From Minisyncoccota bacterium (lineage in GTDB: Bacteria > Patescibacteriota > Minisyncoccia > Phycocordibacterales > UBA5272), in the NCBI GenBank assembly GCA_031972295.1, contig DALYEZ010000001.1, positions 1 to 55,758 of the forward strand: a DNA stretch of 55,758 nucleotides, read 5' to 3'. Positions 76 to 51,635 of the stretch are shown piece by piece. The notes under the pieces were generated by a model, which was not told the DNA's origin, made no database searches, and worked only from the letters and a program-made list of their open reading frames with translations. The stretch's first letter is position 1. Each line of letters starts with the position of its first letter. A program made the translations under genes and the position numbers.

Positions 76-154
76 GATGTGGATACGCTACAAACTGTAC
101 CTGTTTTGTGTATATTTTTCAATACCTATCTCTATTCTGTGTTAGGATATATGG

Positions 155-1447
155 ATGAAGAAAATAGGTATTGCGTTACTTGGCGTTCTTGTAGCGGGGG
201 CACTCTTTTTTGTGTTTACCTCAAAAACAGGACCAAATGGTCAGCCGATTGAAAATGGTCTTACTGACAAGGACTTGATTACCCTCTATTGGGAGTCAGG
301 AGACGTTTTTTTTACAAACAAGGGGGTACAAGAGGCAAGACTTAATAAAGATTCCTCAAGTGTCATTATTCAGACAGGCAGTCAGGTGCGGACAACTGAA
401 GGATCAGCATACGTGCTTTTCCCCGACAACTCGATGATGTCAATCGATAAAAATACTATCGTAACTATTGAGTACTCAAAAGAGAAAGTTTCTATTCTCC
501 AAACGCTCGGAAACACATACCACCGTGTAAAGACACTCGAATCAGGGCAACAATACGAAGTGCGTACCCCGGGAACGCTCGCTGCTGTGCGTGGTACAAA
601 GTTTGCTGTTTTCTTTGATAACAAAACCAAGAAATCGAATGTAAAAGTAACGGAGAGTAAAGTGAGTGTAAAAAAGCTCGACAGTACCAAACCACTCAAA
701 GATGCTCCTGTGGTGCTTGAAGAAGTTGTTGTTGAAGAAGGCTCACAAGTTGATGTTCCAGATACTTCTATTCAAATCACGCGACCACTTGCGCCAACTC
801 GTATGGGGGAGAAGGACAAACGAGATAGTGGCTGGATGGAGAAGAATGAAATTGTTGACGAAGCAACAGAGAAGCCAGAAAATCGCCGTGAATTTATTGA
901 AAAGATGATTGAGGAGGTGAAGAAACAAAAAGAGGGAATGAATGACAAAGAAAAGATGGATGCGCTCCGTGATCGAGTTAAAAAGTTTAAACAAGAAAAA
1001 GGAATACAAGATGATTCTGTTTCTGAAGAAGACAATTCTAAAGTTCTTGTGGCAAGAAAGACGACTGATGACGCGATTTTAAAACCTCTTCTTGTAGATA
1101 CTAAGCCAGCAGACGACACTCCTTCTTTGAGTGACGACGAAAACCTTCCACCACTTGATCCAAGTATGAGTGATAGTGATGATCCTTTTGTACTCGAGTT
1201 TGATAGACGTTATGAATATTGGTTCCCAATTTACTCAGACAAAGCGACATTATGCTCGCGGGTGAATCCGCTTACCCCAGAAATACTCAAGGCGCGCTTG
1301 ATTGCTTTTGAGACAACCTACAAAGGCACGGTGCCAAATAAAGACGGTATTCTTAATTTTCTTCGAGCATTAAAACTATTCTGTTCTTCAACAGATACAG
1401 ACAATCGAATTCTTGATGAAGGTTACACGGAGAATTACCCTTTCTAA
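155..1447 (+). CDS. Membrane-anchored FecR-domain protein
   Basis: N-terminal TM helix; FecR-like beta domain (TGSQVRT...LFPDNSMMSIDKNT...EVRTPGTLAAVRGTKFAV); charged helical C-terminal half. Confidence 0.8.
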   Translation: MKKIGIALLGVLVAGALFFVFTSKTGPNGQPIENGLTDKDLITLYWESGDVFFTNKGVQEARLNKDSSSVIIQTGSQVRTTEGSAYVLFPDNSMMSIDKNTIVTIEYSKEKVSILQTLGNTYHRVKTLESGQQYEVRTPGTLAAVRGTKFAVFFDNKTKKSNVKVTESKVSVKKLDSTKPLKDAPVVLEEVVVEEGSQVDVPDTSIQITRPLAPTRMGEKDKRDSGWMEKNEIVDEATEKPENRREFIEKMIEEVKKQKEGMNDKEKMDALRDRVKKFKQEKGIQDDSVSEEDNSKVLVARKTTDDAILKPLLVDTKPADDTPSLSDDENLPPLDPSMSDSDDPFVLEFDRRYEYWFPIYSDKATLCSRVNPLTPEILKARLIAFETTYKGTVPNKDGILNFLRALKLFCSSTDTDNRILDEGYTENYPF

Positions 1448-1457
1448 AGCATAGTCT

Positions 1458-3371
1458 GTGAAAAAAAATCTAAACATCACAACGCACAAAACTTTTCTCA
1501 TTGTTTGGATTGTCAGCATCGTTTTTTTTACGTGGGTTCTCCATTGGAATATATTTCAAAACATAAATAATATTTTCTTTGACCCACTTACTACAGGTAC
1601 CGAACGAAAAGATGTGGTTATTGTTGGTATTGATGAAAAAAGCTTGGCGCGTTACGGCGCTTTTCCGTGGGATAGGGATATTTACGCAAACCTCCTTACT
1701 TCACTTGATGGGTACAATCCACGTGTGATTGGTTTTGATATTTTGTTTGCTGAGTCGCGAGCGGGTGATGAAGTGCTTAAAAATATACTTCGTACCATGA
1801 AGACCGATGTCGTTTTTGCAACGAAGGTAGAAGAAGATGCATACATTTCGTCTTTGTATGGTGGTATTTCACCTCGTGTTCATGAAGGAGTGGTGAATGT
1901 TTTTCCTGACAACGATGCTAAGGTGCGCTCAGTCCAAAATTATTTTCTATACAACAAAGAATGTTTACCGTCGTTTTCAAAAAAGATTCTCTCTGTTGCT
2001 ACAAAAATGAGTGAGTATGTGCCAGGGAAGTGTGATACTAAGCAGAAACTTTTCCGGTATCAGGAAAATATTCAAAAAATATCATTTGTTGATGTTGTTG
2101 ATAAAGACATTCCGCTTGAAATGCTTCGAGATAAAATCATTCTTGTTGGATTTGCTACCACTGATCTTGAACAAGATTCATTCTTTGGACTTTTAGGAAG
2201 TAAGATTAATGGAGTTGAAATTCATGCAAGTGCGATTGCGCACAATCTCAATAATGTCCGATTAGTATCTGTTCCAAACTATGTGACACTTTTAGCAAAT
2301 ATTATTTTTGCATTCTTGATAGCTTTCCTTCCTTTTTTCATTAAACGTTTTTCTACACAAATAATTATTCTTGTTCTTGTTGCAGCTGCGACATTCTTTG
2401 GTGCGATTATTGGCTATGAATATGGCTATAAAACGTATGTGCCATGGGCAGTAGGGCTCCCACTTTTTTCGTACGGACTCAGTCTTCTGTATTCCTATGT
2501 GACTAATGTTCGGAAAAATGAATATCTCAAAAAGGTCTTCGGCACGTATGTGCACCCGTCGCTTTTGGAGGAACTTATCAGTGATCCAGCAAAGCTTAAA
2601 CTTGGTGGCGAAAAACGCTATATGACCGTGCTTTTTTCTGACATTCGTGGGTTCACCACTTTCTCGGAAAAACTTTCACCAGAGGGGCTTGTGGACCTTT
2701 TAAATGATTATTTAAACACCATGTCACCGCTTGTTTTGGAACGGCGAGGCACAATCGACAAGTATATTGGGGACGCGATTATGGCATTTTGGAATGCACC
2801 CGTGGCTACAGAAAATCATGAGCTTTTAGCGGTTGAGACAGCACTTGCTATGCAGGAAGCATTAGTTGCATTTAATAAAGAAAAGGCAGATGCAAATGGC
2901 ATGAAGCTTGGCATTGGTATTGGAATCAATAGTGGAGAAATGGTGGTGGGAAATATGGGAAGCGATGCGCGCTTTAATTACACCATTATGGGAGACGCGG
3001 TAAACACAGGCTCTCGTTTCGAAGGGCTGACCAAAAAATATGGCGTTGTAACTATAGTGGGTGAGTCCACGCGAAACGCTATTACGGACGATAAAATTCT
3101 TTTCCGTAAGCTCGATGTGATGACGGTAAAAGGAAAAAGTGAGCCAACAACTATTTATGAGCCGCTTCGAGCAAGTGACTCTATGCGAGAGTTTGTAAAA
3201 AACTATGAGTCTGGTTTTGATGCGTATATCAAAGGTGATTTTGAAACAGCGAAGAAATATTTGGAAACTCTAGCAGCACATGGTGATGAGCCGTCAAAAA
3301 TGCTTCTTGAGCGCATGAAGACCATTGACCTTGCAAGTTGGAAAGGTGTGTGGAAATGGGACGAAAAATAA
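1458..3371 (+). CDS. CHASE2-domain class III adenylate/guanylate cyclase
   Basis: GTG start; TM, CHASE2 motifs (VVIVGIDEKSL, FPWDR, VIGFDILF, GVEIHA), 3 TMs, cyclase core LFSDIRGFT / IDKYIGDAIMAFW / NYTIMGDAVNTGSRFEG. Confidence 0.95.
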   Translation: MKKNLNITTHKTFLIVWIVSIVFFTWVLHWNIFQNINNIFFDPLTTGTERKDVVIVGIDEKSLARYGAFPWDRDIYANLLTSLDGYNPRVIGFDILFAESRAGDEVLKNILRTMKTDVVFATKVEEDAYISSLYGGISPRVHEGVVNVFPDNDAKVRSVQNYFLYNKECLPSFSKKILSVATKMSEYVPGKCDTKQKLFRYQENIQKISFVDVVDKDIPLEMLRDKIILVGFATTDLEQDSFFGLLGSKINGVEIHASAIAHNLNNVRLVSVPNYVTLLANIIFAFLIAFLPFFIKRFSTQIIILVLVAAATFFGAIIGYEYGYKTYVPWAVGLPLFSYGLSLLYSYVTNVRKNEYLKKVFGTYVHPSLLEELISDPAKLKLGGEKRYMTVLFSDIRGFTTFSEKLSPEGLVDLLNDYLNTMSPLVLERRGTIDKYIGDAIMAFWNAPVATENHELLAVETALAMQEALVAFNKEKADANGMKLGIGIGINSGEMVVGNMGSDARFNYTIMGDAVNTGSRFEGLTKKYGVVTIVGESTRNAITDDKILFRKLDVMTVKGKSEPTTIYEPLRASDSMREFVKNYESGFDAYIKGDFETAKKYLETLAAHGDEPSKMLLERMKTIDLASWKGVWKWDEK

Positions 3372-4611: not shown

Positions 4612-4660
4612 ATGGCTATTCTACCACAAATGATTTTTCAGTATATAATGCAGGGTATCT

Positions 4661-5791: not shown

Positions 5792-6013
5792 ATGTTAGTA
5801 AAAGTTCGTGTTAAAGCTGAAGCAAAAAAGCAACTCATCATGGAGGTTGCTCATGATTCGTATACGGTTCATGTTCAGGCATCAAAAGAACGTGGCCTGG
5901 CAAATAAGGAAATGCTTGAGATTCTCAAAGAGTACTTTAAAACAAAGCACATTAAAATCATTAAAGGTCATACAACACCTCATAAAATTGTCGATATATT
6001 TACATTGGTCTAA
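5792..6013 (+). CDS. DUF167 (YggU/UPF0235) family protein
   Basis: VKVRVKAEAKK...VHVQASKERGLANKEM..IL..YF...IIKGHT..HKIV pattern. Confidence 0.85.
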   Translation: MLVKVRVKAEAKKQLIMEVAHDSYTVHVQASKERGLANKEMLEILKEYFKTKHIKIIKGHTTPHKIVDIFTLV

Positions 6014-6031
6014 AGACGGTATAATGGCAGT

Positions 6032-6424
6032 ATGAGAATATCAATTAAAGCGACAAACATTGATCTTACTGAGCCACTTCGCTCATATGTAACCGAGCGA
6101 ATTGAATCCGTACGAAAGCTCACGACCATTTCAGATGAATCCCTTCATGCAGCGGTAGAAATAGGAAAAACATCTCACCATCACAAACAGGGAGACATTT
6201 TCCGAGCGGAGGTAAACTTTCATCTTGCACACACCATGTTGCGAGCAGTAGCTGTGAAAGATGATCTCTATGCCGCTATTGATGAAATGAAAGACGAATT
6301 AGCCCGAGAACTTTCTTCATATAAGGATAAAGACAGAACCCTTATGCGTCGCGGAGCCTCGGCGGTAAAAGCGATGATGAAAGGTGTTGGTGATATGTTT
6401 AGAACAAGACGAAGCGATAATTAA
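6032..6424 (+). CDS. raiA: Ribosome hibernation promoting factor (RaiA/HPF, short form)
   Basis: ISIKATNIDLTEPLRSYV..., DDLYAAIDE..DELAREL..YKDK. Confidence 0.92.
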   Translation: MRISIKATNIDLTEPLRSYVTERIESVRKLTTISDESLHAAVEIGKTSHHHKQGDIFRAEVNFHLAHTMLRAVAVKDDLYAAIDEMKDELARELSSYKDKDRTLMRRGASAVKAMMKGVGDMFRTRRSDN

Positions 6425-8032: not shown

Positions 8033-8527
8033 TTATTTTTCTTGAGGTGGTTGCTCAACTACTTTTTTTGCTTTATCGATAAAAAGAATACCTTCGAGAT
8101 GGTCTGTCTCATGTTGGAAAATTTGAGAAAGTAATCCACCACCAACACGTGTAAATTTTACTCCGTTCTGATCATATGCCTCGACGGTAGTATTTACACT
8201 TCGTTTTACTTCGCCGTACTTCCAACGTACCGAAAGACAACCCTCTGGCATTACCTCCGTTTTCTTTGATTTTTTTATAATAGTGGGATTAATGAAAACT
8301 AAAGGCATATCTTTTGTATTGCCATGGTAGGCTTTTTCAGAAACAAGAAAAATACGGTATGGAAGACCGATTTGAGGTGCAGCAATAGCGACACCATCTT
8401 TCTGACTATCAAGAGCAACTTTCATTTCATTCAACATGTTGAAAAGCTTCGCTGTTTTAAAGAAGTTTGCAGGTACTACCTCTGCCTTATTTCGTAACAC
8501 TTTTTCACCAACCTGGACTATTTCCAT
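8033..8527 (-). CDS. def: Peptide deformylase
   Basis: Three PDF motifs: GVAIAAPQIG, EGCLSV, QHETDHLEG. Confidence 0.97.
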   Translation of the reverse strand: MEIVQVGEKVLRNKAEVVPANFFKTAKLFNMLNEMKVALDSQKDGVAIAAPQIGLPYRIFLVSEKAYHGNTKDMPLVFINPTIIKKSKKTEVMPEGCLSVRWKYGEVKRSVNTTVEAYDQNGVKFTRVGGGLLSQIFQHETDHLEGILFIDKAKKVVEQPPQEK

Positions 8528-8537
8528 ATTTTCCGTA

Positions 8538-9848
8538 CTATAGCAAATCTTGTACGTATTTGGCTACGAGCGCATTAAATGCAAGTCCTCGATCTTGATA
8601 ATCTTTAAACATATCAAAACTTGGTGCGCCCGGAGAGAAAAGAATAGTTTCTCCAGTTTTTGTTTTTTGAATTGCCGCTCGGAACACGTCTTCAAAGTTT
8701 CCTGTAATAACAACGTGTGGAATGTTGTGGAGAGAAAAAAGTTTGGATATACGATCTCGTTCTTCTCCGTATACGATAACGTCTTTAATAAAGAGTGACT
8801 TCTCTATACTTGTAACGAAAGGTTCTAAGTGAAGACCTCTATCTACACCACCAATAAGGAGTGTTGTGGGTGCAATCATGCTTTCAATTGCGACGTCTGT
8901 GGCTGTAGGGTTCGTGGCAAAAGAATCATTTACAAATGTAATGCCATTATGTGTTGCGATCGTCTCGATATGAAAAGGAAGCCCTTTGAATGTTTTAATT
9001 GCTTGTACAATAGATTTTTTATCTACGAGTGCCCACGTTGCTGCAATAGCCGCACAAATATTTTGTTCATTGTGTTTGCCGGGGAGTAAAGCATCCTTTG
9101 CAGCACATATTTCCTCATTGTTGTATGTAAAGAAATCGTTTTCATTTACTTGCACCAACGCATTTGTTCCGTAGGGAATTTTGTTTTTTGCAATACTAAG
9201 CGCGCTAAGCTGTGTGCTTACCTCGTTGTCTTGAAACCATATTGCTGCGTCTTCTTCCTTTTGATATTTAAAAATATTTCCTTTGGATGCTTGATATTGC
9301 TGAATGTCTTTATGCCAGTCGAGATGATCTTCGGTAACTAAAAGACAGATTGCTATCTGTGGGCTTTTGTGAAGATCAAAAAGCTGGAAACTTGAAAGTT
9401 CGTAGACAACAATAGATTGCGGAGTGAGTTTTGGGAGAATAGAAAGTGAGGGTGTGCCAATGTTTCCTACAAGGTGGACGTCTTTGCCATCAGTTTTTAA
9501 AATTTCATAGATAAGAGTTGCTGTTGTTCCTTTTCCCTTAGTGCCCGTGATGCCAATAATGGGGCAGGGACATAATTCAAAAAACTCCTTCGTGACAGTT
9601 GTAACTTTACCTTGGACGATGTCTTCAATGTCCCAGAGTGGTACTCCGGGGGAGCGGACAATGAGATCAAGTGCTGGTGAATCTGCTAAAAGAAGGTCTT
9701 TCCAATTTGATCCGAGTCTTTTGGTACATGTTGTAGGAACTTCAAGTGATTCATTTTGGTCGTACACAGAAATCTCTGCGGCTTGATTACCCCAGTATTC
9801 GAGTGCCATTTTGCCTTCTCGTCCAAATCCAACAATTCCTATTCGCAT
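8538..9848 (-). CDS. murD: UDP-MurNAc-L-Ala:glutamate ligase (MurD, probably L-Glu-using MurD2 type)
   Basis: GFGREG N-terminus, RSPGVP, GITGTKGKGTT, ELSSFQL, DHLDWH, VNDSFATNP, SPGAPSFDMF; start overlaps the murL stop. Confidence 0.93.
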   Translation of the reverse strand: MRIGIVGFGREGKMALEYWGNQAAEISVYDQNESLEVPTTCTKRLGSNWKDLLLADSPALDLIVRSPGVPLWDIEDIVQGKVTTVTKEFFELCPCPIIGITGTKGKGTTATLIYEILKTDGKDVHLVGNIGTPSLSILPKLTPQSIVVYELSSFQLFDLHKSPQIAICLLVTEDHLDWHKDIQQYQASKGNIFKYQKEEDAAIWFQDNEVSTQLSALSIAKNKIPYGTNALVQVNENDFFTYNNEEICAAKDALLPGKHNEQNICAAIAATWALVDKKSIVQAIKTFKGLPFHIETIATHNGITFVNDSFATNPTATDVAIESMIAPTTLLIGGVDRGLHLEPFVTSIEKSLFIKDVIVYGEERDRISKLFSLHNIPHVVITGNFEDVFRAAIQKTKTGETILFSPGAPSFDMFKDYQDRGLAFNALVAKYVQDLL

Positions 9849-11158
9849 GTTTCTATAATAGCGCGTAACGGAGTATTTATCTCTTCAGGGATAAAGTTGG
9901 GGTGGTAATTGGTAAGGAAGCTATCCGCAAGTTTCGCTTCATTTTCTACAGTAATCCAGTCCTCAACCGAAAGACTTTTCCCAAGCAGTGAATTTTTAAA
10001 GTCATCACTTTGAATCGCGGCGCGACACATTTCAGCTCTTGTTGCTACGCAGTCGAAAGGTTTTACAGGTGAAAGCCCTAGAAGCTCTTTGAGAAGCGGT
10101 GTGAGGCTTTCATTTTGATGCAAATCACTTCCAAATATTTCCATTCTCTTTTCAAGAGGAAGTGAAACTGACAAAAGCATATTTGTACCAAGACATTTTG
10201 CACACACACCACACCATCTTTTTGCACCACTTTCTTCAATGGTGAAGTTTTTATTGCAGCTACTAAAAGCTGGGAATACGTGAGGGCACATTTTTGCAAA
10301 TAAGTTTGTCACTCGAAGTCCACCCAGTGGCCGTAGAATAGAAAAGTATGTAATTTCTTGAGAAATGGTTTGGCGTACAAAATCTTGAACCTTTTTTTCA
10401 AAGTCACTCGTTTTTGACCACTGATGGTTCACGGGTCTGCCGAGCCATTCTGTGTTGGACTCATCAGCACTTGTTTCGTTTGCTACAACGACATACTTAC
10501 TTTGCTCGTGCTCTGCAAGCACAACTCCTGTGAAAGCGTAGATAAGAGAAATAGGAACATGTCCAAGAAAAACATTTTCTTTGAGTGTCAGTAGTTGCGG
10601 GTCTGTTTTGCGGACGACTTCAAGAAGAGGAATATTAAGTGCTTGAGTATTTTCAATGAGCAACGGAATGGATCGAACTTTTGTAGCAAAACCTGTCACA
10701 GGAACATTTATTCTTTTGAGAAGTTCTACTGCAAGCGAAGAATCTTTACCGCCACCGATTCCAACAATAGCTTTTAGTTCGTAGGAAGATGTTGTCTCAT
10801 GTGGCGGTGTACTGACTGTTTCTTCGTAAGTTATTTGTATCTGGTCGACAACACTCCACTCGAGCTTGTTTTGGTACACAAGTTCAGAAAAGCCGTTTCT
10901 AAAAAGCCACTGCCAAAATTCTTTCTCACTATCATCAATTAACCACCCTATGTGTATCTCTGGTGCAAGGTGGAGTTTGAAATAACTAATAGACGTGGCA
11001 ATAGCAAGGGCTCGGAGCGCTTTAGAATCGGAAATCTCAAAAGGAAAGATATGTTCTTCTTGAAATGAAAAAGAAGTAGCTCCGTCGGTATAGGAATAGG
11101 TATAGATTGCTGTGTTTGCAACAACCTTCGGGAGGTGAATAGTGAAGATTTTATCCAT
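9839..11158 (-). CDS. murL: UDP-MurNAc-L-Ala-L-Glu epimerase MurL
   Basis: GIGGGKDS, GHVP, ANETSA, VNHQWSK, YFSILRPL, FSSCNKNF, RWCGVCAKC, KPFDCV match the MurL motif series in order; start set at MDKIF, 7 nt after TGG-CATAAT. Confidence 0.88.
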   Translation of the reverse strand: MDKIFTIHLPKVVANTAIYTYSYTDGATSFSFQEEHIFPFEISDSKALRALAIATSISYFKLHLAPEIHIGWLIDDSEKEFWQWLFRNGFSELVYQNKLEWSVVDQIQITYEETVSTPPHETTSSYELKAIVGIGGGKDSSLAVELLKRINVPVTGFATKVRSIPLLIENTQALNIPLLEVVRKTDPQLLTLKENVFLGHVPISLIYAFTGVVLAEHEQSKYVVVANETSADESNTEWLGRPVNHQWSKTSDFEKKVQDFVRQTISQEITYFSILRPLGGLRVTNLFAKMCPHVFPAFSSCNKNFTIEESGAKRWCGVCAKCLGTNMLLSVSLPLEKRMEIFGSDLHQNESLTPLLKELLGLSPVKPFDCVATRAEMCRAAIQSDDFKNSLLGKSLSVEDWITVENEAKLADSFLTNYHPNFIPEEINTPLRAIIETCE

Positions 11159-11187
11159 TTCTTTCATTATGCCATGTGAACAAGAAA

Positions 11188-11549: not shown

Positions 11550-11580
11550 GTTTAGCCCATTTTCAGGTACACTTTATCTT

Positions 11581-14158: not shown

Positions 14159-14198
14159 TTTTTCGTTCCTTTTCCTCCTTTGTGTTACATTTATACTT

Positions 14199-16799: not shown

Positions 16800-16901
16800 A
16801 AATCAGAAGAAGATTGAGTCCTTTCTACTGACCATTTTAATTATTAAAGTCTTCAGAGGAGATAGTTTCAGTCTTAAATTTAGAAGTGTTACAATGCTTT
16901 T

Positions 16902-18777: not shown

Positions 18778-18875
18778 AGATTTGTTTTGGGACAGGGCGA
18801 CCCAATGCAAAATAGTATACACGAACATGGATTTTTTGGAAGAGGTGAAAAAGTACGCTATAGTAGGTACAAATT

Positions 18876-32016: not shown

Positions 32017-32045
32017 GAATTCTATAAGTTTGGTATAATAGCGTA

Positions 32046-34899: not shown

Positions 34900-35974
34900 C
34901 AATTCTGAAAAAACAGTATTTCTTGGAATGTCAGGCGGGGTAGACTCGTCTGTTTCAGCATATCTATTAAAACAAGAAGGTTACAATGTAGTCGGAGTTT
35001 TTATACAAGTGTGGCAACCAGAAGGTTTCCCTTGTACCGCAAAAGAGGATCGACTCGATGCTATGCGAGTAGCGGCACAGCTTGATATTCCATTCCTTAC
35101 CCTTGACCTGGAGGCGGAGTATAAAAAGGGTGTCATTGATTACATGTTGGAAGAATACAAAAAAGGTAACACGCCAAATCCTGATGTTATGTGCAATAAA
35201 GAGGTGAAGTTTGGCGCATTTTTAAATTGGGCACAAGCACGTGGCGCAGACTATGTTGCAACAGGGCACTACGTTCAGGTAGAGCATGGAGTATCCGAAT
35301 CAAAGATATTCTCCAGTATAGATTCCGAAAAAGATCAGACATATTTTTTATGGACACTTACCCAAAAACAAATAAAACATCTTCTTTTTCCTATCGGTCA
35401 TCTCAAAAAAAGTCAGGTGCGAACGATTGCTGAAAAACAAAATCTCTACACTGCTCCAAAAAAAGATAGCCAAGGGCTATGCTTCGTTGGTACTATTTCA
35501 TTCAAAGAACTCTTAAAACATGAATTAAAGCCAGTTCAGGGTAATGTTTTAAATGAAGTTGGGGATAGTATTGGAACTCACGACGGAGCTATTTTATACA
35601 CAAAGGGGGAGCGTCATGGATTTTCTATTACAAAAAAGACTCCGAATGACGAGAGATTATTTGTTGTTGATAGGGATATACAAAAAAACACCGTTACTGT
35701 CTCGAACCAAGTACCTGAAGAAAATCAAAGGTTACTTTCAAAGCATATTGTACTTCACGAAGCTTCTTTTACTAGAATTCCTTTTTCTGTTGGACAGGCA
35801 TTTCTTGTTCGTTTTCGGTATCGTGCAGAACTTTTTTCCTGCTCAATTATTGAAAATAATTCCGAAACTATTACTCTTGAAATAGATATTCCTGTATCAG
35901 TAACAAAAGGTCAGTCAGCTGTTTTGTATAGTGTGGATAACGTGGAGTTGCGCGGAGGAGGTATAATAAGTTAA
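34892..35974 (+). CDS. mnmA: tRNA-specific 2-thiouridylase MnmA
   Basis: MSGGVDSS, TPNPDVMCN, ATGHY, KDQTYFL, KKDSQGLCF. Confidence 0.97.
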   Translation: MHNNSEKTVFLGMSGGVDSSVSAYLLKQEGYNVVGVFIQVWQPEGFPCTAKEDRLDAMRVAAQLDIPFLTLDLEAEYKKGVIDYMLEEYKKGNTPNPDVMCNKEVKFGAFLNWAQARGADYVATGHYVQVEHGVSESKIFSSIDSEKDQTYFLWTLTQKQIKHLLFPIGHLKKSQVRTIAEKQNLYTAPKKDSQGLCFVGTISFKELLKHELKPVQGNVLNEVGDSIGTHDGAILYTKGERHGFSITKKTPNDERLFVVDRDIQKNTVTVSNQVPEENQRLLSKHIVLHEASFTRIPFSVGQAFLVRFRYRAELFSCSIIENNSETITLEIDIPVSVTKGQSAVLYSVDNVELRGGGIIS

Positions 35975-38808: not shown

Positions 38809-38861
38809 CTTATTCTCGCTAAAAAGTTTTGTAATTCTGTTTGTAGGGTATACTTATCTAC

Positions 38862-41156: not shown

Positions 41157-41366
41157 ATGCCAGATGCTGAACCGGTCCAAGGACAAGTAATAGAAGCGCT
41201 CCCGAGCACGCTTTTCAAAGTGAAATTAAAAGATACCGACACTGAGGTTCTTTCGTATTTAGGGGGTAAAATGCGTATCCATAAAATACGAATTCTAGTA
41301 GGGGATAAGGTGGCTGTACTACTTGATCCATATGGTGGTAAAGCGAGAATAGTGAAGCGTCTCTAG
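41157..41366 (+). CDS. infA: Translation initiation factor IF-1
   Basis: GQVIEALPS..FKV, GKMRIHKIRILVGDKV. Confidence 0.95.
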   Translation: MPDAEPVQGQVIEALPSTLFKVKLKDTDTEVLSYLGGKMRIHKIRILVGDKVAVLLDPYGGKARIVKRL

Positions 41367-41422
41367 AGTCCTTGCGTTATACATAAAAATATCGTATTAT
41401 ACATAACCATATTGCCGTTATC

Positions 41423-41545
41423 ATGAAAATCAAATCAACAATCAAGGCAAAAGACTTGCGTAATGGAGAATTTCTTGTTCGCCGAAACGGGAAACTTTTC
41501 CGTATTAACAAGAAAGACCCAGCTCGCAAGGCTCGACAAGGGTAA
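41423..41545 (+). CDS. rpmJ: 50S ribosomal protein bL36 (Cys-free form)
   Basis: [40 protein letters not shown] between infA and rpsM; missed by the ORF track. Confidence 0.92.
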
Positions 41546-41567
41546 CAATTTATAATTATTAAAGCAC

Positions 41568-41948
41568 ATGCGAATTTCAGGTATTACAATCCCAGAGAAA
41601 AAACGTCTCGAAATCAGCCTTACCGCAGTTTTTGGTATTGGTCGACCACGAGCAAAAACAATTCTTCAGAAATTGAAGATTGATGAAAGTAAGTCAGCTA
41701 AAGATCTTACAGAAGAACAAGAAAATGCTATTCGAAAAGAGATCGAGGCTTTTAAAATTGAAGGAGATCTCAAGCGTGATGTTGCTCAAAACATTAAGCG
41801 TCTTAAGGATATCAAGGCCTACCGAGGTGTACGACATATGCGTAAAATGCCTGTACGAGGCCAGCGCACAAAGACAAACTCTCGAACTGTTCGTGGAAAT
41901 GTTCGAAAGACTATGGGAAGCGGTCGACGAAAGGCTGAAAAGACATAA
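41568..41948 (+). CDS. rpsM: 30S ribosomal protein uS13
   Basis: RISG..IP..K, FGIGR, YRGVRH...PVRGQRTKTNSRT. Confidence 0.98.
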   Translation: MRISGITIPEKKRLEISLTAVFGIGRPRAKTILQKLKIDESKSAKDLTEEQENAIRKEIEAFKIEGDLKRDVAQNIKRLKDIKAYRGVRHMRKMPVRGQRTKTNSRTVRGNVRKTMGSGRRKAEKT

Positions 41949-41977
41949 TCCTTTTACATATCTAACTATTTAATACT

Positions 41978-42412
41978 ATGGGAAAAAAACGAATTGTAAA
42001 AAAGGCTGGATCCACAATGGACCAAGGTCTTAAGGCTCGATCACTCGCAAAGCTTGTAAAGCGAAAGCTGACACATGGTGTGCTTCATGTTGAGGCAACA
42101 TACAACAATACAAAAGTAACCCTTTCTGATGTTGAAGGTAATACTATTGCATGGTCTTCAAGTGGCGCTCTTGGATTTAAAGGCGCAAAAAAGGGTACTC
42201 CGTTTGCGGCATCAAAAATTGGTGAACTTCTTGGTGAAAAAGCTCTCCAAGCTGGAATCAAAGAAGTTGACGTTATTATTAAAGGCGTTGGCTCTGGACG
42301 AGAAGGTGCACTTCGTGCATTTATCGCTCACGGTATTGATGTACTTACTATCAAAGACCGTACACCAATCCCACACAACGGTCCTAAGGCTCCAAAGCCA
42401 CGACGTGTGTAA
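41978..42412 (+). CDS. rpsK: 30S ribosomal protein uS11
   Basis: TYNNTKVTL, GFKGAKKGTPFAA, GVGSGRE, TPIPHNG. Confidence 0.98.
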   Translation: MGKKRIVKKAGSTMDQGLKARSLAKLVKRKLTHGVLHVEATYNNTKVTLSDVEGNTIAWSSSGALGFKGAKKGTPFAASKIGELLGEKALQAGIKEVDVIIKGVGSGREGALRAFIAHGIDVLTIKDRTPIPHNGPKAPKPRRV

Positions 42413-42425
42413 TCTGTAATACTAT

Positions 42426-43025
42426 ATGAAATTAAAAGCAAAAATAGCTCGACGAATTGGAGAACCTTTGATTGGACAAGCAAAGAAGGTTTCTGTTATC
42501 AAGCGAAACTTTCCACCAGGACGTCTTGACTCACAGCGAAAGCACAAGACAAGTTCTTCTGAATACAAAGGTCAGATGAAGGAAAAGCAAAAGACACGTT
42601 TTAGTTACGGTCTTAAGGAACACCAATTTAAAACATACGTAAAGACTGCCGCGCTCACAAAAAACCCTATTGATGTTCTCTTTGCAACTCTTGAACACCG
42701 ACTCGACAACGTTGTATACCGATCTGGTTTTGCAAACACACGACAGTTTGCACGACAACTTGTAACTCACGGTCACATAACAGTAAACGGTAAACGACTC
42801 AATGTTCCTTCATACCAGACCAAAAAAGGTGACGTGGTAGCTATCCGTGAGGGTAGTATGGGAAAGAGTCCGTTTCTTCTTGTTAAAGAAACGATCAAAG
42901 AACACAAAGAGCCACAATGGCTAAAAATTGATCGTATGGAACTCAAGTCAGAAATTACCAGCGAACCAAAAGACACTGAGAAGTCATTCAACCTCCAAAC
43001 GGTTCTTGAGCTTTACAGTCGATAG
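42426..43025 (+). CDS. rpsD: 30S ribosomal protein uS4
   Basis: SEYKGQMKEKQK, LEHRLDNVVYRSGF, ARQLVTHGHITVNG. Confidence 0.97.
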   Translation: MKLKAKIARRIGEPLIGQAKKVSVIKRNFPPGRLDSQRKHKTSSSEYKGQMKEKQKTRFSYGLKEHQFKTYVKTAALTKNPIDVLFATLEHRLDNVVYRSGFANTRQFARQLVTHGHITVNGKRLNVPSYQTKKGDVVAIREGSMGKSPFLLVKETIKEHKEPQWLKIDRMELKSEITSEPKDTEKSFNLQTVLELYSR

Positions 43026-43099
43026 TAGGGGATAACCGTTTGCAATTTGTCAAGCGGTAGTGTACAATTTATCAATTCTAGCTTGTTCGAGCGTATATT

Positions 43100-44044
43100 A
43101 TGTCACATTCAATACTTTTACCTTCTAAACCAAAAATAGTTTCAGAAGATGGTTTTTCGGGCGTTTACGAAATCGATGGATTATATCCAGGATACGGACA
43201 CACATTAGGAAACTCTCTTCGAAGAATTATCCTTTCGTCACTTCCTGGCGTTGCAATCACATCAATTAAAATTGATGGTGTTCAGCATGAGTTCTCTACA
43301 ATGGCGGGGGTAAAAGAAGATGTTATTACAGTTCTTCTTAATCTTAAGCGCATTCGTTTTGCTATGACAGGCGATGAACCACAAGTGGTTACTATCGATG
43401 TTAAAGGGGAAAAAACCGTTACCGCTAAAGATATCGAAGTTGGTGGACAGGTAGAAGTTACAACAAAGGACCAGTACATTTGTGAACTTACACAAAAGAG
43501 CGCTGTTTTCTCTGTTGAAATGACACTTGAAAAAGGTCTTGGATATGTTTCAAAGGAGAATCATCGAAAAGAAAAAACTCCAATCGGGACTATCGCCCTT
43601 GATGCATCATTTACTCCTATTCGTCGCGTAAGTTACGAAGTAGAAAATATGCGTGTCGGTGACCGAACTGACCATAACCGTCTTCGAATTACTATTGAAA
43701 CAGATGGCACAATTACACCTCGAAAAGCCCTCGAATCTTCAATTGAAGCCATGATCATGCAGCTCCAGGCAGTTGTTGGATTTAGAGAATCTCTTACTTC
43801 TCAAGCAAATCCTGAAAAGTCAGAAGTTGTTGCCGAAGAAACTGATCTTACAAAGGTAAAGATTGAAGACCTCGACATTTCAAAACGATCTCAAAACGCT
43901 CTTATTGAAGGAGGAATTAAATCAGTTGCAGGACTTGCTCGAAAAAGTGAACAAGATCTCCTTGAAATCGATGGAATTGCTGAAAAAGGGGTTGAAGAAA
44001 TCAAACTTGCTCTCACAAAACTCGGTGTCGTATTAAAAGATTAG
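43100..44044 (+). CDS. rpoA: RNA polymerase subunit alpha
   Basis: GYGHTLGNSLRRIILSSLPG, GVQHEFST, FTPIRRVSYEVE..RVG, alpha-CTD. Confidence 0.98.
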   Translation: MSHSILLPSKPKIVSEDGFSGVYEIDGLYPGYGHTLGNSLRRIILSSLPGVAITSIKIDGVQHEFSTMAGVKEDVITVLLNLKRIRFAMTGDEPQVVTIDVKGEKTVTAKDIEVGGQVEVTTKDQYICELTQKSAVFSVEMTLEKGLGYVSKENHRKEKTPIGTIALDASFTPIRRVSYEVENMRVGDRTDHNRLRITIETDGTITPRKALESSIEAMIMQLQAVVGFRESLTSQANPEKSEVVAEETDLTKVKIEDLDISKRSQNALIEGGIKSVAGLARKSEQDLLEIDGIAEKGVEEIKLALTKLGVVLKD

Positions 44045-44048
44045 TCGT

Positions 44049-44405
44049 ATGAATCATCACAAAACAGGAAGAAAATTTGGTCGGGAAAAGAATGCACGTG
44101 TAGCACTCGTACGAGGCTTACTCCTTTCTCTTATCGAACATGAAAGTATTGTTACAACTGAAGCAAAAGCGAAAGAAATCCGCCCACGCATTGAAAAGCT
44201 TGTAACACGAGCAAAAGAAGATACTCTTGCAAACAAACGTATTGTTCTTTCTCGACTTTACAACAGCACAAAGGCGACTCGAAAACTTTTTGCCGATATC
44301 GGTAAACGGTTTGACGGTGTACAGGGTGGCTATACTCGTATTATTAAACTTGGTCGCCGCACAGGAGATGCAAGTAAAATGGCAGTAATTGAATTCACAA
44401 AGTAA
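44049..44405 (+). CDS. rplQ: 50S ribosomal protein bL17
   Basis: TTEAKAKEIR..EKLVT, GGYTRIIKL..R.GDA. Confidence 0.97.
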   Translation: MNHHKTGRKFGREKNARVALVRGLLLSLIEHESIVTTEAKAKEIRPRIEKLVTRAKEDTLANKRIVLSRLYNSTKATRKLFADIGKRFDGVQGGYTRIIKLGRRTGDASKMAVIEFTK

Positions 44406-44406
44406 T

Positions 44407-44751
44407 ATGAAACACACAATCGACGCCACAAATCAGTCTCTCGGACGAATTGCTACACAGGTAGCTGCGCTTTTGAATGGAAAAAATACTGTTACTTTTG
44501 TTAAAAATAAAGTTGCAGAAGTAGAAGTTGCAGTTATTAATGCTTCAAAACTTAAAGTAACGGGAAGTAAAATGAAAGAATCTGTGCACAAGCGCTACTC
44601 TGGATACCCAGGAGGCCTTACACAAGAATCTCTTACACATGTTGTTGCAAAAAAAGGTCACGCTGAGCTTATCAAACATGCGGTAGAAGGAATGCTTCCT
44701 AAAAACAAGCTCCAGAAAATTCGCATGAAGCTTCTTACTATTTCTGAATAA
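44407..44751 (+). CDS. rplM: 50S ribosomal protein uL13 (short form)
   Basis: IDA..Q.LGRIA, VINASK, HKRYSGYPGGL, AVEGMLPKN. Confidence 0.95.
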   Translation: MKHTIDATNQSLGRIATQVAALLNGKNTVTFVKNKVAEVEVAVINASKLKVTGSKMKESVHKRYSGYPGGLTQESLTHVVAKKGHAELIKHAVEGMLPKNKLQKIRMKLLTISE

Positions 44752-44756
44752 CTTTT

Positions 44757-45155
44757 ATGACAACAAAACGATACATTGAATCAGTAGGACGACGAAAAAC
44801 CGCAATTGCGCGAGTACGTATTTCTGAAGCTGCAAAACGAGTTGTTACAGTAAATGATAAAGAACTTGCTGTGTACTTTCCAACGAAAGAACTCCAAGCA
44901 ATCGTTCTTTCTCCTCTTGAAGCAGGAGAACTCGTACACACGTACTCAGTTTCGGTAAAAGTTCTCGGCGGTGGTATTCATGCTCAGGCAGAAGCTGTTC
45001 GTCACGGACTTTCTCGATCTTTAGTGAAAGCAGAAGGTACTATCAAGGATGCTCTGAAGAAGCTTGATCTTCTCAAACGTGATCCTCGAGCTGTAGAACG
45101 AAAGAAATTTGGTCTCAAGAAAGCTCGCAAAGCTCCAACTTGGTCAAAGCGTTAA
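44757..45155 (+). CDS. rpsI: 30S ribosomal protein uS9
   Basis: GRRKTAIARV, GGGIHAQAEAVRHG, ERKKFGLKKARKAPTWSKR. Confidence 0.98.
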   Translation: MTTKRYIESVGRRKTAIARVRISEAAKRVVTVNDKELAVYFPTKELQAIVLSPLEAGELVHTYSVSVKVLGGGIHAQAEAVRHGLSRSLVKAEGTIKDALKKLDLLKRDPRAVERKKFGLKKARKAPTWSKR

Positions 45156-45212: not shown

Positions 45213-45785
45213 ATGGATGAGAAAGAATTAGACGAAACACAAATAGAAGATGTATCTTTTGAGTCTACCGACACTGAAGGTGTAGAAGAAACTCAGGGTG
45301 CAAAAATAAAGAAACTCCGTGAAGAAATAGAGAAATTACGTAAGGAACGTGATGAGTATTTGGTTGGCTGGCAAAGAGCTAAAGCTGACTATGTAAACCA
45401 ATCTAAAACGTATCTTGAAGAACGCTCTGATTTAATTAAAAACGCAGCTCGAAAAACTATCTCCGCAATACTTCCAACACTTGATACCTATGACTTAGCG
45501 AAAAGTAATATTGACGCCTGGAATGCAGTGGATGCAAATTGGCGCACAGGCATAGAATATATCTTTCAGCAACTCTTAAATACTCTTGAAAATGAAGGTT
45601 TAAAAAAGTTTGGAAAGGTTGGAGATGTGTTTGATCCAAACCTCCACCAGAGCATTGAAGCAATCCCAGTTTCTGATAGAATGCAAGATGGTACCGTCCT
45701 TTCAGTCCTGCAAAGTGGCTATATGCTACATGAGAAAGTTATTCGTCCAGCAAAGGTGAATGTCGGAATATACAAACAAGAATAA
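45213..45785 (+). CDS. grpE: Nucleotide exchange factor GrpE
   Basis: YL..WQRAKADYVN, FDPNLHQ, VLQSGY.LH.KVIRPAKV.V. Confidence 0.96.
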   Translation: MDEKELDETQIEDVSFESTDTEGVEETQGAKIKKLREEIEKLRKERDEYLVGWQRAKADYVNQSKTYLEERSDLIKNAARKTISAILPTLDTYDLAKSNIDAWNAVDANWRTGIEYIFQQLLNTLENEGLKKFGKVGDVFDPNLHQSIEAIPVSDRMQDGTVLSVLQSGYMLHEKVIRPAKVNVGIYKQE

Positions 45786-48893: not shown

Positions 48894-48897
48894 CAAT

Positions 48898-49077
48898 TTA
48901 GATGTAGGAAGGACTCATAAACAAAGCCTTCTCTTGTGTCTTTTCAAAAAAATCTCGTTGGCTTAAATGCCAAATGGTTCCTGATTGGTCTTGAATCACG
49001 TACACACCCGCCTTAACATCTAGAACCATTGCGTAACAAAATGATCCTTCTTGATCATATATTCGCACAATTTCCAT
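48898..49077 (-). CDS. 59-aa hypothetical protein (MEIVRIYDQEGSFCYAMVLDVKAGVYVIQDQSGTIWHLSQRDFFEKTQEKALFMSPSYI)
   Basis: AGGAGAGG SD, TTGACT-N17-TACAAA upstream, ends at a shared terminator; missed by the ORF track. Confidence 0.65.
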   Translation of the reverse strand: MEIVRIYDQEGSFCYAMVLDVKAGVYVIQDQSGTIWHLSQRDFFEKTQEKALFMSPSYI

Positions 49078-49165
49078 GAACCCTCTCCTGAGATTGTTGT
49101 TTTAATTTGTAACAATAGACAAAATAAAAGTCAAGGTCGTGATTTCTCTATATAATTGATACTAT

Positions 49166-50182
49166 ATGCAGATGAATACGGAAGATATAGTACTCACTGG
49201 CGATCGACCAACAGGAAAACTGCACCTTGGACATTTTGTTGGTTCAATACAAAACCGGCTCAAACTTCAAGATGAATACCAGAACTGCTATTACATGATT
49301 GCGGATATTCAAGCACTTACCGACAATGCGGATAATCCTCAAAAAGTACGTGACAATGTGCTTGAAGTCGCACTCGATAATCTCGCATGTGGTCTTGATC
49401 CAAAAAAGACTACTATGTTTATTCAGTCGCAAGTACCCGAGATTGCTGAGCTCACAGTACTTTTCTTAAATCTGGTAACAGTTGCGCGTCTAAAGCGTAA
49501 CCCAACCGTGAAAGCAGAGATGAGGCAAAAGGGGTTTGGTGAGGATGTACCGGCTGGATTTCTTACGTATCCTATAAGCCAAGCAGCGGACATCCTTTCA
49601 GTAAAAGGAAATGTAGTTCCTGTTGGAGAAGATCAGCTTCCTGTGCTTGAGCAAGCAAATGAAATCATTGATTCGTTTAATAGAATTTATGGCGAGACAT
49701 TTAAAAAAATTACAGGTCTTCTTGGTGCGAAAAACACTCAACGGCTAGTTGGCTTGGATGGTAATGCAAAAATGAGTAAATCTCTTGGTAATACCATTAA
49801 CCTTGCTGATGATGAAAAAACAATCATTTCTCAGGTGCGAAAAATGTACACTGACCCAGCACATATTCACAAAGAAGAACCTGGAAAAGTAGAGGGTAAT
49901 GTGGTGTTTACGTATCTCGATATTTTCGACTCAAACAAAGATGAAGTTGCAGAACTCAAAAGGCAATATAAGAAAGGGGGATTGGGGGACATGGAACTTA
50001 AGAATCGTCTATCGGCACGACTCGATGAAATTATTGCACCTATCCGTGCGCGGCGTGAAGAGCTTGCAAAAAATCCAGACGCGGTGATGAAAATCCTTGA
50101 AGAGGGAACAAAGAAAATGAGAAAAGAAGCTCAAAAGACTCTCTCTGAAGTAAAAGAGAAACTCAAGATATCCTATTTTTAA
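49166..50182 (+). CDS. trpS: Tryptophan--tRNA ligase
   Basis: TGDRPTGKLHLGH, YPISQAADIL, PVGEDQ, KMSKS. Confidence 0.97.
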   Translation: MQMNTEDIVLTGDRPTGKLHLGHFVGSIQNRLKLQDEYQNCYYMIADIQALTDNADNPQKVRDNVLEVALDNLACGLDPKKTTMFIQSQVPEIAELTVLFLNLVTVARLKRNPTVKAEMRQKGFGEDVPAGFLTYPISQAADILSVKGNVVPVGEDQLPVLEQANEIIDSFNRIYGETFKKITGLLGAKNTQRLVGLDGNAKMSKSLGNTINLADDEKTIISQVRKMYTDPAHIHKEEPGKVEGNVVFTYLDIFDSNKDEVAELKRQYKKGGLGDMELKNRLSARLDEIIAPIRARREELAKNPDAVMKILEEGTKKMRKEAQKTLSEVKEKLKISYF

Positions 50183-50210
50183 TTTTACCTAAAAAAGGTA
50201 GAATACCCAG

Positions 50211-51635
50211 ATGAAACGCGTATACATAGGAGGACTTGCACAGCACGCAGATACCGCAGTGTCAATTCAAGGGTGGGTTCATACAAAAAGAAATCAAGGA
50301 AAGATGGTTTTCTTTGAATTTCGTGACATGACAGGAAAAGTGCAGGGAGTTGTCCTTCCAGGCAATGAAAATCTTAAAGCCCAGGCGGACGAACTCCGTG
50401 ACGAGTGTGTCGTAGAAATAACCGGTACAATCAATAAGCGTCCCGAGAAGAATGTGCAGGTTGGGAAGATAAACGGCGATATAGAGATGGTGATCGAGTC
50501 GATTTCTCTTCTCAACAAAGCTGAGGTTCTCCCTTTCCCCATTGCAAGTGATACACGAGAAATTGGCGAAGATGTACGGTTTACGCACCGCTACCTTGAT
50601 TTACGAAGTGAGCGCATGCAACGAAATATTCGCAAACGTGGAGAGGTTTTGCAATTTATTCGTAACTACCTTGCGGAAGAAAAGTTTACTGAAGTTGAAA
50701 CACCACTGCTTACAAAATCAACTCCTGAGGGTGCTCGTGATTTTGTAGTACCTGCACGGCTCTATCCTGGAAGTTTTTATGCGCTTCCACAATCTCCACA
50801 ACAATACAAACAACTTCTGATGACCGCAGGAATTGAACGTTATTTTCAAGTAGCTAAATGTCTTCGAGATGAAGATTCTCGTGGTGACCGTCAGCCAGAA
50901 TTCACACAGCTCGATATGGAAATGAGTTTTGTGAAAAAAGAAGATGTTATGGCATTAAACGAGAAGCTTCTTATTGAGCTTGTTTCGAAACATTATCCTG
51001 AGAAAAAGATTCAGCAAATTCCTTTTCCGCGCATTTCGTATAAAGAGGCAATGGAAAAATATGGAAATGATAGACCTGATATTCGTGAAGATAAAAATGA
51101 CCCAGATCTTTTGGCATTTTGTTGGGTAGTAGATTTCCCATTCTTTGAACGTACTGATAAGTCTGATAACCCTGATACTTTTGGAGACTGGACGTTCACT
51201 CACAATCCATTTTCTCGCCCAGTTTCAGAGCACATGAGTAACCTCATGGAAAAGAAAAACATTGGAGATATCATTACTTCTCAATATGATATTACATTAA
51301 ACGGTTACGAGATTGGTGGTGGAAGTATTCGAAATCATGAAGTAGGAGCACTCATGACTGTTTTTGAAATTCTTGGTTACAAAGAAGAAGAAATAAAAGC
51401 AAACTTCGGACACATGCTTACCGCATTTTCACTTGGCACACCACCTCACGGAGGTATTGCCTGGGGGTTTGATCGCCTCATGATGATTCTCCACAACGAA
51501 GCAAATATTCGTGAAGTTATGGCATTTCCGAAAACAGGCGAAGGAAAAGATCTTATGATGCAATCGCCAAGTACTATTTCAGACAAGCAACTTAAAGAAC
51601 TTTCTCTTGAGCTCAAACTCAAAAAACATGTCTAG
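50211..51635 (+). CDS. aspS: Aspartate--tRNA ligase, bacterial type lacking the GAD domain
   Basis: STPEGARDF, ALPQSPQQYKQLLM, RDED.RGDRQPEFTQLDMEM, NGYEIGGGSIR, PPHGGIAWGFDRL. Confidence 0.96.
   Translation: MKRVYIGGLAQHADTAVSIQGWVHTKRNQGKMVFFEFRDMTGKVQGVVLPGNENLKAQADELRDECVVEITGTINKRPEKNVQVGKINGDIEMVIESISLLNKAEVLPFPIASDTREIGEDVRFTHRYLDLRSERMQRNIRKRGEVLQFIRNYLAEEKFTEVETPLLTKSTPEGARDFVVPARLYPGSFYALPQSPQQYKQLLMTAGIERYFQVAKCLRDEDSRGDRQPEFTQLDMEMSFVKKEDVMALNEKLLIELVSKHYPEKKIQQIPFPRISYKEAMEKYGNDRPDIREDKNDPDLLAFCWVVDFPFFERTDKSDNPDTFGDWTFTHNPFSRPVSEHMSNLMEKKNIGDIITSQYDITLNGYEIGGGSIRNHEVGALMTVFEILGYKEEEIKANFGHMLTAFSLGTPPHGGIAWGFDRLMMILHNEANIREVMAFPKTGEGKDLMMQSPSTISDKQLKELSLELKLKKHV

Follow-up and report, generated by a model that had tools for sequence, protein, structure and literature searches.

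An extended -10 element at start codons

The DNA analysed here, a 55.8-kb stretch of contig DALYEZ010000001.1 (~40% G+C; hereafter the window), carries before about one fifth of its genes a -10-like hexamer that ends 6 or 7 nucleotides (nt) upstream of the start codon. An initial annotation had read this arrangement as a sign of widespread leaderless messenger RNAs (mRNAs), and that reading is examined below. Annotation with NCBIfam and Pfam profiles identified a FecR-domain gene, a CHASE2 plus adenylate/guanylate cyclase gene, YqeY, RmuC, HPF, a PPIase, Fmt, Def, MurD, a MurL-like epimerase, UvrB, UvrA, FolD, DD-peptidases, YchF, LeuRS, MltG, MnmA, MgtC, AlaRS, the cluster infA-rpsM-rpsK-rpsD-rpoA-rplQ-rplM-rpsI, GrpE-DnaK-DnaJ, TrpRS, AspRS, ScpA/B, MraY, FtsW and MurG, together with two tRNAs. 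Copies of the window UvrA at 99% and 96% identity occur in 'Candidatus Paceibacteria/Paceibacterota' metagenome-assembled genomes (MAGs), and further relatives of 68-76% identity are labelled Paceibacterota, Parcubacteria, Nomurabacteria or Minisyncoccia. On these matches the window is placed in the candidate phyla radiation (CPR)/Patescibacteria, class Paceibacteria (Parcubacteria).

Independent gene calls were taken from the public record GCA_031973375.1 (contig DALYDE010000001.1), part of which is 100% identical to the window. The relatives comprise 78 loci from related genomes (L003-L080; ~1.4 Mb) with 1,171 open reading frames (ORFs) of at least 80 amino acids (aa), and flanks of ~10 kb upstream and ~8 kb downstream of the window came from the same genome. 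Sites were scored with a position weight matrix (PWM) trained on other genomes, a score of at least 5.8 bits being called strong; the gap is the number of nt between the end of the -10 hexamer and the start codon. The following sites in the window have a gap of 6 or 7.

137-157 (+): FecR-domain gene; extended -10 CTGTGTTAGGAT, TAGGAT 143-148, gap 6, ATG 155; 8.2 bits
4609-4629 (-): YqeY gene; extended -10 TTGTGGTAGAAT, TAGAAT 4618-4623, gap 6, ATG 4611; 12.8 bits
6014-6034 (+): HPF/RaiA; cGgTATAAT, TATAAT 6020-6025, gap 6, ATG 6032; 6.6 bits
9846-9866 (-): MurD; TATTAT 9855-9860, gap 6, ATG 9848; 5.8 bits, borderline
11156-11177 (-): MurL-like epimerase, a weak candidate; TGgCATAAT, CATAAT 11166-11171, gap 7, ATG 11158; 2.1 bits
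11562-11583 (+): UvrB; aGgTACACT, TACACT 11568-11573, gap 7, GTG 11581; 7.3 bits
14180-14201 (+): UvrA; extended -10 TTGTGTTACATT, TACATT 14186-14191, gap 7, GTG 14199; 8.8 bits
16884-16904 (+): 142-aa protein, no assigned function; extended -10 AAGTGTTACAAT, TACAAT 16890-16895, gap 6, ATG 16902; 8.9 bits
27809-27829 (-): 187-aa coiled-coil protein; extended -10 AAATGGTATATT, TATATT 27818-27823, gap 6, ATG 27811; 8.6 bits
32028-32048 (+): 454-aa protein, no assigned function; extended -10 GTTTGGTATAAT, TATAAT 32034-32039, gap 6, ATG 32046; 11.4 bits
35956-35976 (+): MgtC; aGgTATAAT, TATAAT 35962-35967, gap 6, ATG 35974; 6.6 bits
38843-38864 (+): 331-aa protein, no assigned function; gGgTATACT, TATACT 38849-38854, gap 7, ATG 38862; 8.4 bits
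50193-50213 (+): AspRS; aGgTAGAAT, TAGAAT 50199-50204, gap 6, ATG 50211; 6.4 bits

The eight plus-strand hexamers of the initial annotation lie exactly at the coordinates given there, and its three minus-strand hexamers were located as listed above. Each ends 6 or 7 nt from an ATG or GTG, and G stands at -14 (the TGn/nGn extension) in 11/11. Ten are strong (nGnTAnnnT), the YqeY box scoring highest in the window, and that of the MurL-like gene is weak because of a C at -12; a generic scan there gives ATGTCA-17-CATAAT with TG. MurD and MgtC, both at gap 6, were not on that list and bring the strong cases to 12. A same-strand gene overlaps or lies at most 53 nt upstream in 7/12 of them, and the boxes of MurD and MgtC fall within the 3' end of the murL-like gene and of mnmA, respectively, which bears out the claim that such boxes occur even inside apparent operons. 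The HPF box occupies an 18-nt spacer behind a 73-aa gene, while the 454-aa protein and AspRS start 29 nt and 28 nt behind the upstream gene (trpS in the latter case). The label 'DUF1003-like', proposed for the gene starting at 27811, found no Pfam support.

Full-length profiles fix the first residues of several of the products. In terms of residue and profile position, HPF matches 1-1 (TIGR00741), AspRS 1-2 (TIGR00459), MurD 2-1 (TIGR01087), YqeY 5-2 (Pfam YqeY) and Def, from the class with longer gaps described below, 1-2 (TIGR00079); residue 10 of MgtC corresponds to position 4 of NF007431. Matches to UvrB profiles start at residues 47-49 of the longest ORF, 5-7 residues past GTG 11581 (its residue 42), and not at the longest-ORF start 41 codons upstream. 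Relatives of UvrA align from residue 1 at GTG 14199. Moreover, the independent calls agree on the starts of the FecR-domain gene (430 aa), YqeY (151 aa), HPF, Fmt, the MurL-like gene (439 aa; alternative starts would be ATG 11167 and ATG 11194), UvrB (670 aa) and UvrA (866 aa). The longest ORF overshoots the start by 41 codons for uvrB, 25 for uvrA, 62 for murL, 10 for fmt and 12 for the methyltransferase at 3338. According to the same calls, the real small gene before hpf encodes a 73-aa PF1765-like protein (5792-6013, +), and a 75-aa longest ORF in another frame (5808-6035) is spurious.

Within the window, a strong score at gap 6 or 7 was found at 11/57 curated starts and at 0/3,268 other ATG/GTG codons (Fisher P = 1.4e-20), and no window gene has a score of at least 5.8 bits at gaps 14-32. 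Bare TAnnnT stands at gap 6 before 10/58 starts, compared with 0.8 expected from control ATGs and ~2.3/58 at neighbouring upstream positions, which serve as a control for AT-richness. When 50 kb of E. coli were run through the identical pipeline, the hexamer was at gap 6 in 1/58 cases and motifs resembling a Shine-Dalgarno (SD) sequence preceded 23/58. The signal is therefore not a product of ORF calling. As out-of-sample cases, the flanks hold Alr and an MBL-fold gene with a gap-6 box, and GreA, a Lys/AsnRS-like gene and a 598-aa gene with the box at gaps of 8-11 nt. No unannotated leaderless ORF was found behind the other strong motif hits in the window.

The uvrB and uvrA sites had been singled out for their near-identical context, and this is exact over 21 nt: both share TACAYTTWWWCTTGTGAGTAA from promoter to GTG start (11568-11588 and 14186-14206). 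A search for a third copy, as a possible operator, found none in the window beyond these two sites. The 21-mer may be a regulatory site common to both genes, or the match may be coincidental; most uvrB and uvrA orthologues among the relatives use ATG and other contexts.

Clade-wide position and promoter nature of the motif

The initial annotation had called for a motif and position analysis with controls, and had set enrichment beyond the AT-rich background as the point at issue. Across the 1,171 ORFs of the relatives, TAnnnT occurs 231 times at gap 6 and 103 times at gap 7 over a flat background of ~45, and TGnTAnnnT 130 and 32 times compared with ~4 elsewhere, which amounts to 4-5-fold and ~30-fold enrichment over neighbouring positions. 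A start-agnostic test, going from each motif to the next long-ORF start, gave the same peak. Expectation maximisation (EM) without a prior motif on positions -40 to -1 of 1,169 upstream regions returned tTrTGnTAtaaT, an extended -10 motif with T-15 at 86% and G-14 at 90%, and assigned it to 28% of genes. Its expected sites number 119, 36, 21 and 21 at gaps 6, 7, 8 and 9, 2 at gap 5 and at most 11 at any other gap. At least one hit at gap 6 or 7 is present in 53/58 loci having at least 10 genes (median 17% of genes); the share of clade genes with the localised motif is ~17-28%. Start codons of this promoter-proximal class are 95% ATG, 3% GTG and 2% TTG.

These counts bear on the possibility that the pattern is an artefact of composition or annotation, arising from AT-rich DNA or from in-frame TAA/TAG before the start of the longest ORF. 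The upstream regions are indeed AT-rich, TAGGAT (before 155) and TAGAAT (before 4611 and 50211) are in-frame stops, and TAnnnT has a secondary peak at gap 0, which is compositional (T at -1, A at -5). However, the enrichment stands against neighbouring positions of the same regions, gaps 3 and 9 are likewise in frame and show no similar enrichment, most of the hexamers have T as their third base and then make no stop, and the TG extension cannot be derived from stops. Moreover, the same pipeline gives no peak in E. coli. On these positional controls and the E. coli run we reject AT-richness, in-frame stops and longest-ORF bias as sources of the signal, and give an artefact next to no chance.

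Usable orthologues were available only for uvrB, uvrA and the 27811 gene. Orthologues of uvrB (74-90% N-terminal identity) keep TGnTAnnnT near the start at gaps of 6-12 nt, and those of the 27811 gene (45-54% identity) keep TGnTATAGT 7-10 nt from it. Strain variants ~96% identical to the window keep the HPF box and its spacing. The contigs found to carry the HPF gene were of the usual metagenomic kind, and their ends were uninformative on transcripts. Most uvrA orthologues are without a box, and the uvrA promoter is therefore specific to this lineage; synteny around uvrA is poor. Relatives at nine loci (L047, L048, L049, L050, L053, L061, L063, L068 and L077; locus position ~9960-10000) share an inverted repeat, CACCCCC...GGGGGTG, that is conserved ~10-40 nt upstream of uvrA and absent from the window. 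It could either terminate the upstream gene or serve in regulation, as a hairpin or an operator.

The gap-6 logo reads T-17, R-16, T-15, G-14, n, T-12, A-11, t, a, a, T-7; a weak TTg occupies -35 to -33 and gives a 17-bp spacer. It is the logo of a sigma-70 promoter, in the correct register if +1 is the A of the ATG. The same motif precedes tRNA-Lys, tRNA-Tyr, tRNA-Asp and tRNA-Glu genes with a TTGAAG -35 box, and several genomes have acTTGAAG-N17-TGgTATTAT 9-10 nt before tRNA-Lys. The window holds a non-coding-gene example of its own.

94-122 (-): tRNA-Glu promoter; TTGAAA-17-TACAGT, 18 nt upstream of the mature tRNA

The -35 box is thus clear (TTGAAG/TTGAAA) at tRNA promoters and only a weak TTg at protein-coding genes. 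Before tRNA genes a ribosome-binding role is impossible, and the motif is therefore a promoter and not a ribosome-binding signal. Its frequency also follows gene arrangement. It precedes 35% of divergent genes and 27-39% of genes behind same-strand spacers of 16-100 nt (divergent and spaced genes overall, 24-39%), 23% of those behind spacers of 0-15 nt, and 7%, equal to background, of overlapping genes.

The alternative that these results address is a non-SD ribosome-binding signal acting at the mRNA level on leadered transcripts, as in GeneMarkS-2 group B (Bacteroidota-like). The near disuse of the SD described below, the distance of the motif from the start, which resembles that of a ribosome-binding site, and the 23% frequency at the shortest same-strand spacers would all fit such a signal. 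Set against them, the motif in full matches the canonical extended -10, TRTGnTATAAT, together with a weak TTG at -35 across a 17-bp spacer, it stands with a TTGAAG box before tRNA genes, its spacing is much sharper than that of a ribosome-binding site, it is near background before overlapping, translationally coupled genes, and the ribosomal-protein operon genes are without it. A ribosome-binding signal is therefore very unlikely.

Transcription start sites (TSSs) are centred 7 bp downstream of the -10 element across 49 bacteria (PMC12641261). This distance corresponds to a gap of 6 nt, so +1 is predicted to fall on the first base of the start codon. We infer the exact TSS from this canonical distance, and the leaderless interpretation is to that extent supported at the level of sequence.

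Six more window genes carry the motif at gaps of 9-13.

8525-8548 (-): Def; TGcTATAGT, gap 9, ATG 8527; 10.1 bits; predicted 5' untranslated region (UTR) ~2-3 nt
18853-18878 (+): gene at 18876; cGcTATAGT, gap 11, ATG 18876; 8.2 bits; TTGGAA-17-TATAGT
27838-27862 (+): LeuRS; TGaTACACT, gap 10, ATG 27860; 9.0 bits
36897-36924 (+): AlaRS; TGtTATACT, gap 13, TTG 36922; 7.9 bits; residue 3 is position 1 of NF002436
45192-45215 (+): GrpE; TGgTAGTTT, gap 9, ATG 45213; 6.9 bits
52322-52346 (+): ScpB; TGtTAGAAT, gap 10, ATG 52344, within the end of scpA; 9.4 bits

Shine-Dalgarno disuse and probable leaderless initiation

SD-like 4-5-mers at -16 to -5 precede 6.1% of starts in the relatives, compared with 4.7% in a control interval, and a small peak at canonical spacing accounts for ~3% of genes. 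That clear SDs are rare, as had been proposed, therefore holds for the clade, and in the window they are limited to two sites.

21040-21053 (+): AGGAGG, 5 nt, ATG 21051 (DD-carboxypeptidase)
49075-49089 (-): AGGAGAGG, then ATG 49077 of a 59-aa ORF (48898-49077), which is backed by an independent gene call

Two more precede small ORFs in the downstream flank (L093, 11897 and 13508), so perfect SDs stand mostly before small ORFs, of 59, 85 and 110 aa, with a single DD-carboxypeptidase gene besides. The existence of a few perfect SDs is a weak argument that the anti-SD is probably still present and hardly used. Rfam found no ribosomal RNA in the window, and the conserved 16S 3' region is absent from the window and 80 related loci. 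As uL1 status has been linked in the literature to anti-SD loss, we also sought the rplK-rplA region (tblastn, E. coli L11) and found it in none of the loci.

A contrasting class is formed by ribosomal-protein genes.

41157-45155 (+): infA-rpsM-rpsK-rpsD-rpoA-rplQ-rplM-rpsI; A/T-rich upstream regions, T at -1

An SD or a start-proximal -10 box was found before 0/8 of these genes. Likewise, the majority of chaperone genes and of the other genes lack both an SD and a -10 box at this distance; GrpE has its short-leader promoter. Genes without the promoter are A-rich and G-poor from -2 to -10 and have T at -1 in 52-64%. With or without an adjacent promoter, T-1 together with an A-rich, G-poor stretch from -4 to -8 recurs in the window and in L003-L080 and looks like a Kozak-type context for SD-independent initiation. 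The earlier statement that leaderless transcripts serve much of the translation of this organism must accordingly be narrowed. About 21% of window genes have the box at gap 6 or 7 and ~10% would have leaders of 2-7 nt, while most genes have neither box nor SD.

Taken together, we consider widespread leaderless mRNAs of the GeneMarkS-2 group C type, combined with SD-independent initiation on leadered genes, to be the best explanation of these sequences, with a probability of roughly 85%. The hexamer would be the -10 element of a housekeeping sigma-70-type promoter with consensus tTRTGnTAtaaT and little or no -35 box. At about one fifth of genes, where 6-7 nt separate it from the start codon, transcription would begin from the A or G of the ATG or GTG, and the resulting mRNA would have neither a 5' UTR nor an SD sequence. 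We infer the mechanism of translation by analogy with other bacteria: the 5'-terminal AUG would be bound directly by ribosomes, probably 70S with fMet-tRNA. At about one tenth more genes the same promoter, 8-13 nt upstream, would produce leaders of ~2-7 nt. Because the genome is compact, many of these promoters lie in very short spacers or in the 3' end of the preceding gene, and genes in apparent operons would therefore have their own leaderless transcript. For the remaining genes, ribosomal-protein and most chaperone genes among them, A-rich and G-poor upstream regions that lack an SD make SD-independent initiation on unstructured leaders, or re-initiation, most likely.

Several observations weigh against this interpretation. 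A generic scan for two hexamers (-35/-10) showed no enrichment, with 35 sites compared with 43 in shuffles; the scan is uninformative for promoters without a -35 box. More than half (18/33) of the strong hits to the motif in the window fall inside genes or in antisense orientation, away from any gene start, and the motif alone is therefore not enough to establish that a promoter functions. T at -1 is just as frequent where the promoter is absent and hence offers no specific support for a transcription start. Half of the strong cases (6/12) have no full-length family model, and their starts rest on the ORF, plus the independent gene call for the FecR-domain gene. Finally, gaps of 8-13, and possibly some of 7, may give leaders of 1-7 nt that are not strictly leaderless.

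The last two points would also suit real promoters with leadered transcripts, the true starts lying further downstream or the TSS a few nt upstream. The tail of gaps at 8-13 nt, the uvrB orthologues with gaps of up to 12 nt and the six N-termini without a model are what such an arrangement would produce. However, full-length profiles agree with the proposed codon as the N-terminus of HPF, AspRS, MurD, YqeY and UvrB, and a long-ORF start 6-7 nt after the box was never seen at the other strong hits or at the 3,268 other ATG/GTG codons. In mycobacteria, moreover, leaders of 0-3 nt behave as leaderless. Leadered transcripts are thus unlikely, and leaderless mRNAs remain the preferred reading.

Compared with known systems, the window resembles GeneMarkS-2 group C (M. 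tuberculosis, M. smegmatis, Streptomyces, D. deserti), for which the group descriptions in PMC6028130 give a Pribnow-type -10 localised 6-8 nt before the start at 1/4 to 1/2 of transcription units, ATG/GTG starts and no SD before them; dRNA-seq bears this architecture out in M. tuberculosis and D. deserti. The same descriptions treat direct recognition of a leaderless 5'-terminal start by the ribosome as established in Actinobacteria and Deinococcus, and name Actinobacteria and Deinococcus-Thermus as group C-rich clades with no mention of CPR. Whereas leadered and operon-internal genes of group C as described there carry an SD, such genes here are without one; this is also a tiny genome of ~40% G+C from the CPR/Patescibacteria, with a TRTGn extended -10 and almost no -35. 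The likeness extends to haloarchaea, since in Haloferax volcanii leaderless mRNAs occur beside leadered mRNAs that mostly lack an SD. Haloarchaea belong to a different domain, however, with a TATA/BRE promoter ~26 nt upstream and eukaryotic-type initiation factors. Their group D is among those described in PMC6028130. As in Bacteroidota (group B), the non-leaderless genes here are A-rich and G-poor before the start and have no SD, but group B genomes have ordinary 5' UTRs and another promoter consensus and are not leaderless-rich. The Gram-positive sigma-A extended -10 ('-16 region', TRTGn) has the same TRTGnTATAAT consensus and weak dependence on a -35 box. In Firmicutes such promoters normally drive leadered, SD-containing mRNAs.

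For the lineage itself, the CCTCCT anti-SD motif was detected in only 48% of Parcubacteria, and SD helices are probably not formed in some (Tsurumaki et al. 2022, RNA 28:1041, PMC9297842); the paper is silent on leaderless mRNAs and on any substitute for the SD. The SD-poor starts seen here fit the report, but this genome has a few perfect SDs, so its anti-SD may be intact. A literature search found no published description of leaderless genes in CPR, which is not proof of novelty. Thus the mode of translation start is a known one, and its occurrence in CPR appears new.

It is an even bet that Paceibacteria/Parcubacteria, and perhaps much of CPR, are a third large leaderless-rich bacterial lineage and the first with near-complete SD disuse on the remaining genes. 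If so, they would share a pairing of leaderless mRNAs and SD disuse otherwise typical of haloarchaea, there would be an explanation for translation start in those Parcubacteria whose ribosomes are reduced and whose anti-SD motif is missing, and many 'operons' would be strings of monocistronic leaderless units with promoters inside upstream coding sequence. CPR/Patescibacteria account for a large part of bacterial diversity, but hardly any are in culture, and their ribosomes are reduced; a clade-wide leaderless architecture with SD-independent starts would be a concrete and testable answer to how Parcubacteria initiate. In practice, gene finders built on the expectation of an SD will set starts wrongly in such MAGs, as the longest ORFs of uvrB, uvrA, murL and fmt illustrate with overshoots of 10-62 codons, and promoter prediction should rely on the extended -10 box alone. 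A TRTGnTATAAT-N6-ATG design may be usable for expression constructs in the few genetically tractable CPR strains.

Other promoter sites and neighbouring genes

Two divergent gene pairs in the window are only 48-49 nt apart (27812-27859 and 4612-4660). In the first, the promoters of LeuRS and the 27811 gene stand back to back, and two extended -10 boxes, 27818-27829 (-) and 27838-27849 (+), nearly fill the 48-nt intergenic region. Two further extended -10 motifs, of 10.3 bits each, lie ~130 nt upstream of the next gene, at 30843-30854 (+) and, inside grpE, at 45671-45682 (+), and could be the window's few leadered promoters. The gene that follows the second is dnaK. That following the first encodes a 343-aa protein (30985-32016, +) with an N-terminal sigma-70 region 4 and a HARE-HTH domain and without sigma region 2, an unusual transcription-factor architecture.

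At 155-3371 (+), the FecR-domain gene is followed after 10 nt by the CHASE2 plus adenylate/guanylate cyclase gene. The two may form a signalling pair, in a genome that has few other regulators. The murD gene (8538-9848, -) adjoins the gene for the MurL-like UDP-MurNAc-L-Ala-L-Glu epimerase (9839-11158, -). Judging from this adjacency, the bacterium may use the MurD2/MurL route to D-Glu in peptidoglycan, a route described for Xanthomonadales.

Several translation-related proteins depart in length from their models. AspRS (50211-51635, +) is short at 474 aa and matches the 590-position bacterial model in two stretches, while LeuRS (27860-30928, +) is long, with 1,022 aa compared with 843 model positions. 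The uL13 protein (44389-44751, +) is without ~13 N-terminal profile positions, a shortening that fits the CPR pattern in PMC9297842. YchF, which is linked to regulation of leaderless-mRNA translation in work cited in PMC12641178, is encoded at 26076-27173 (+), and its residue 1 corresponds to profile position 1.

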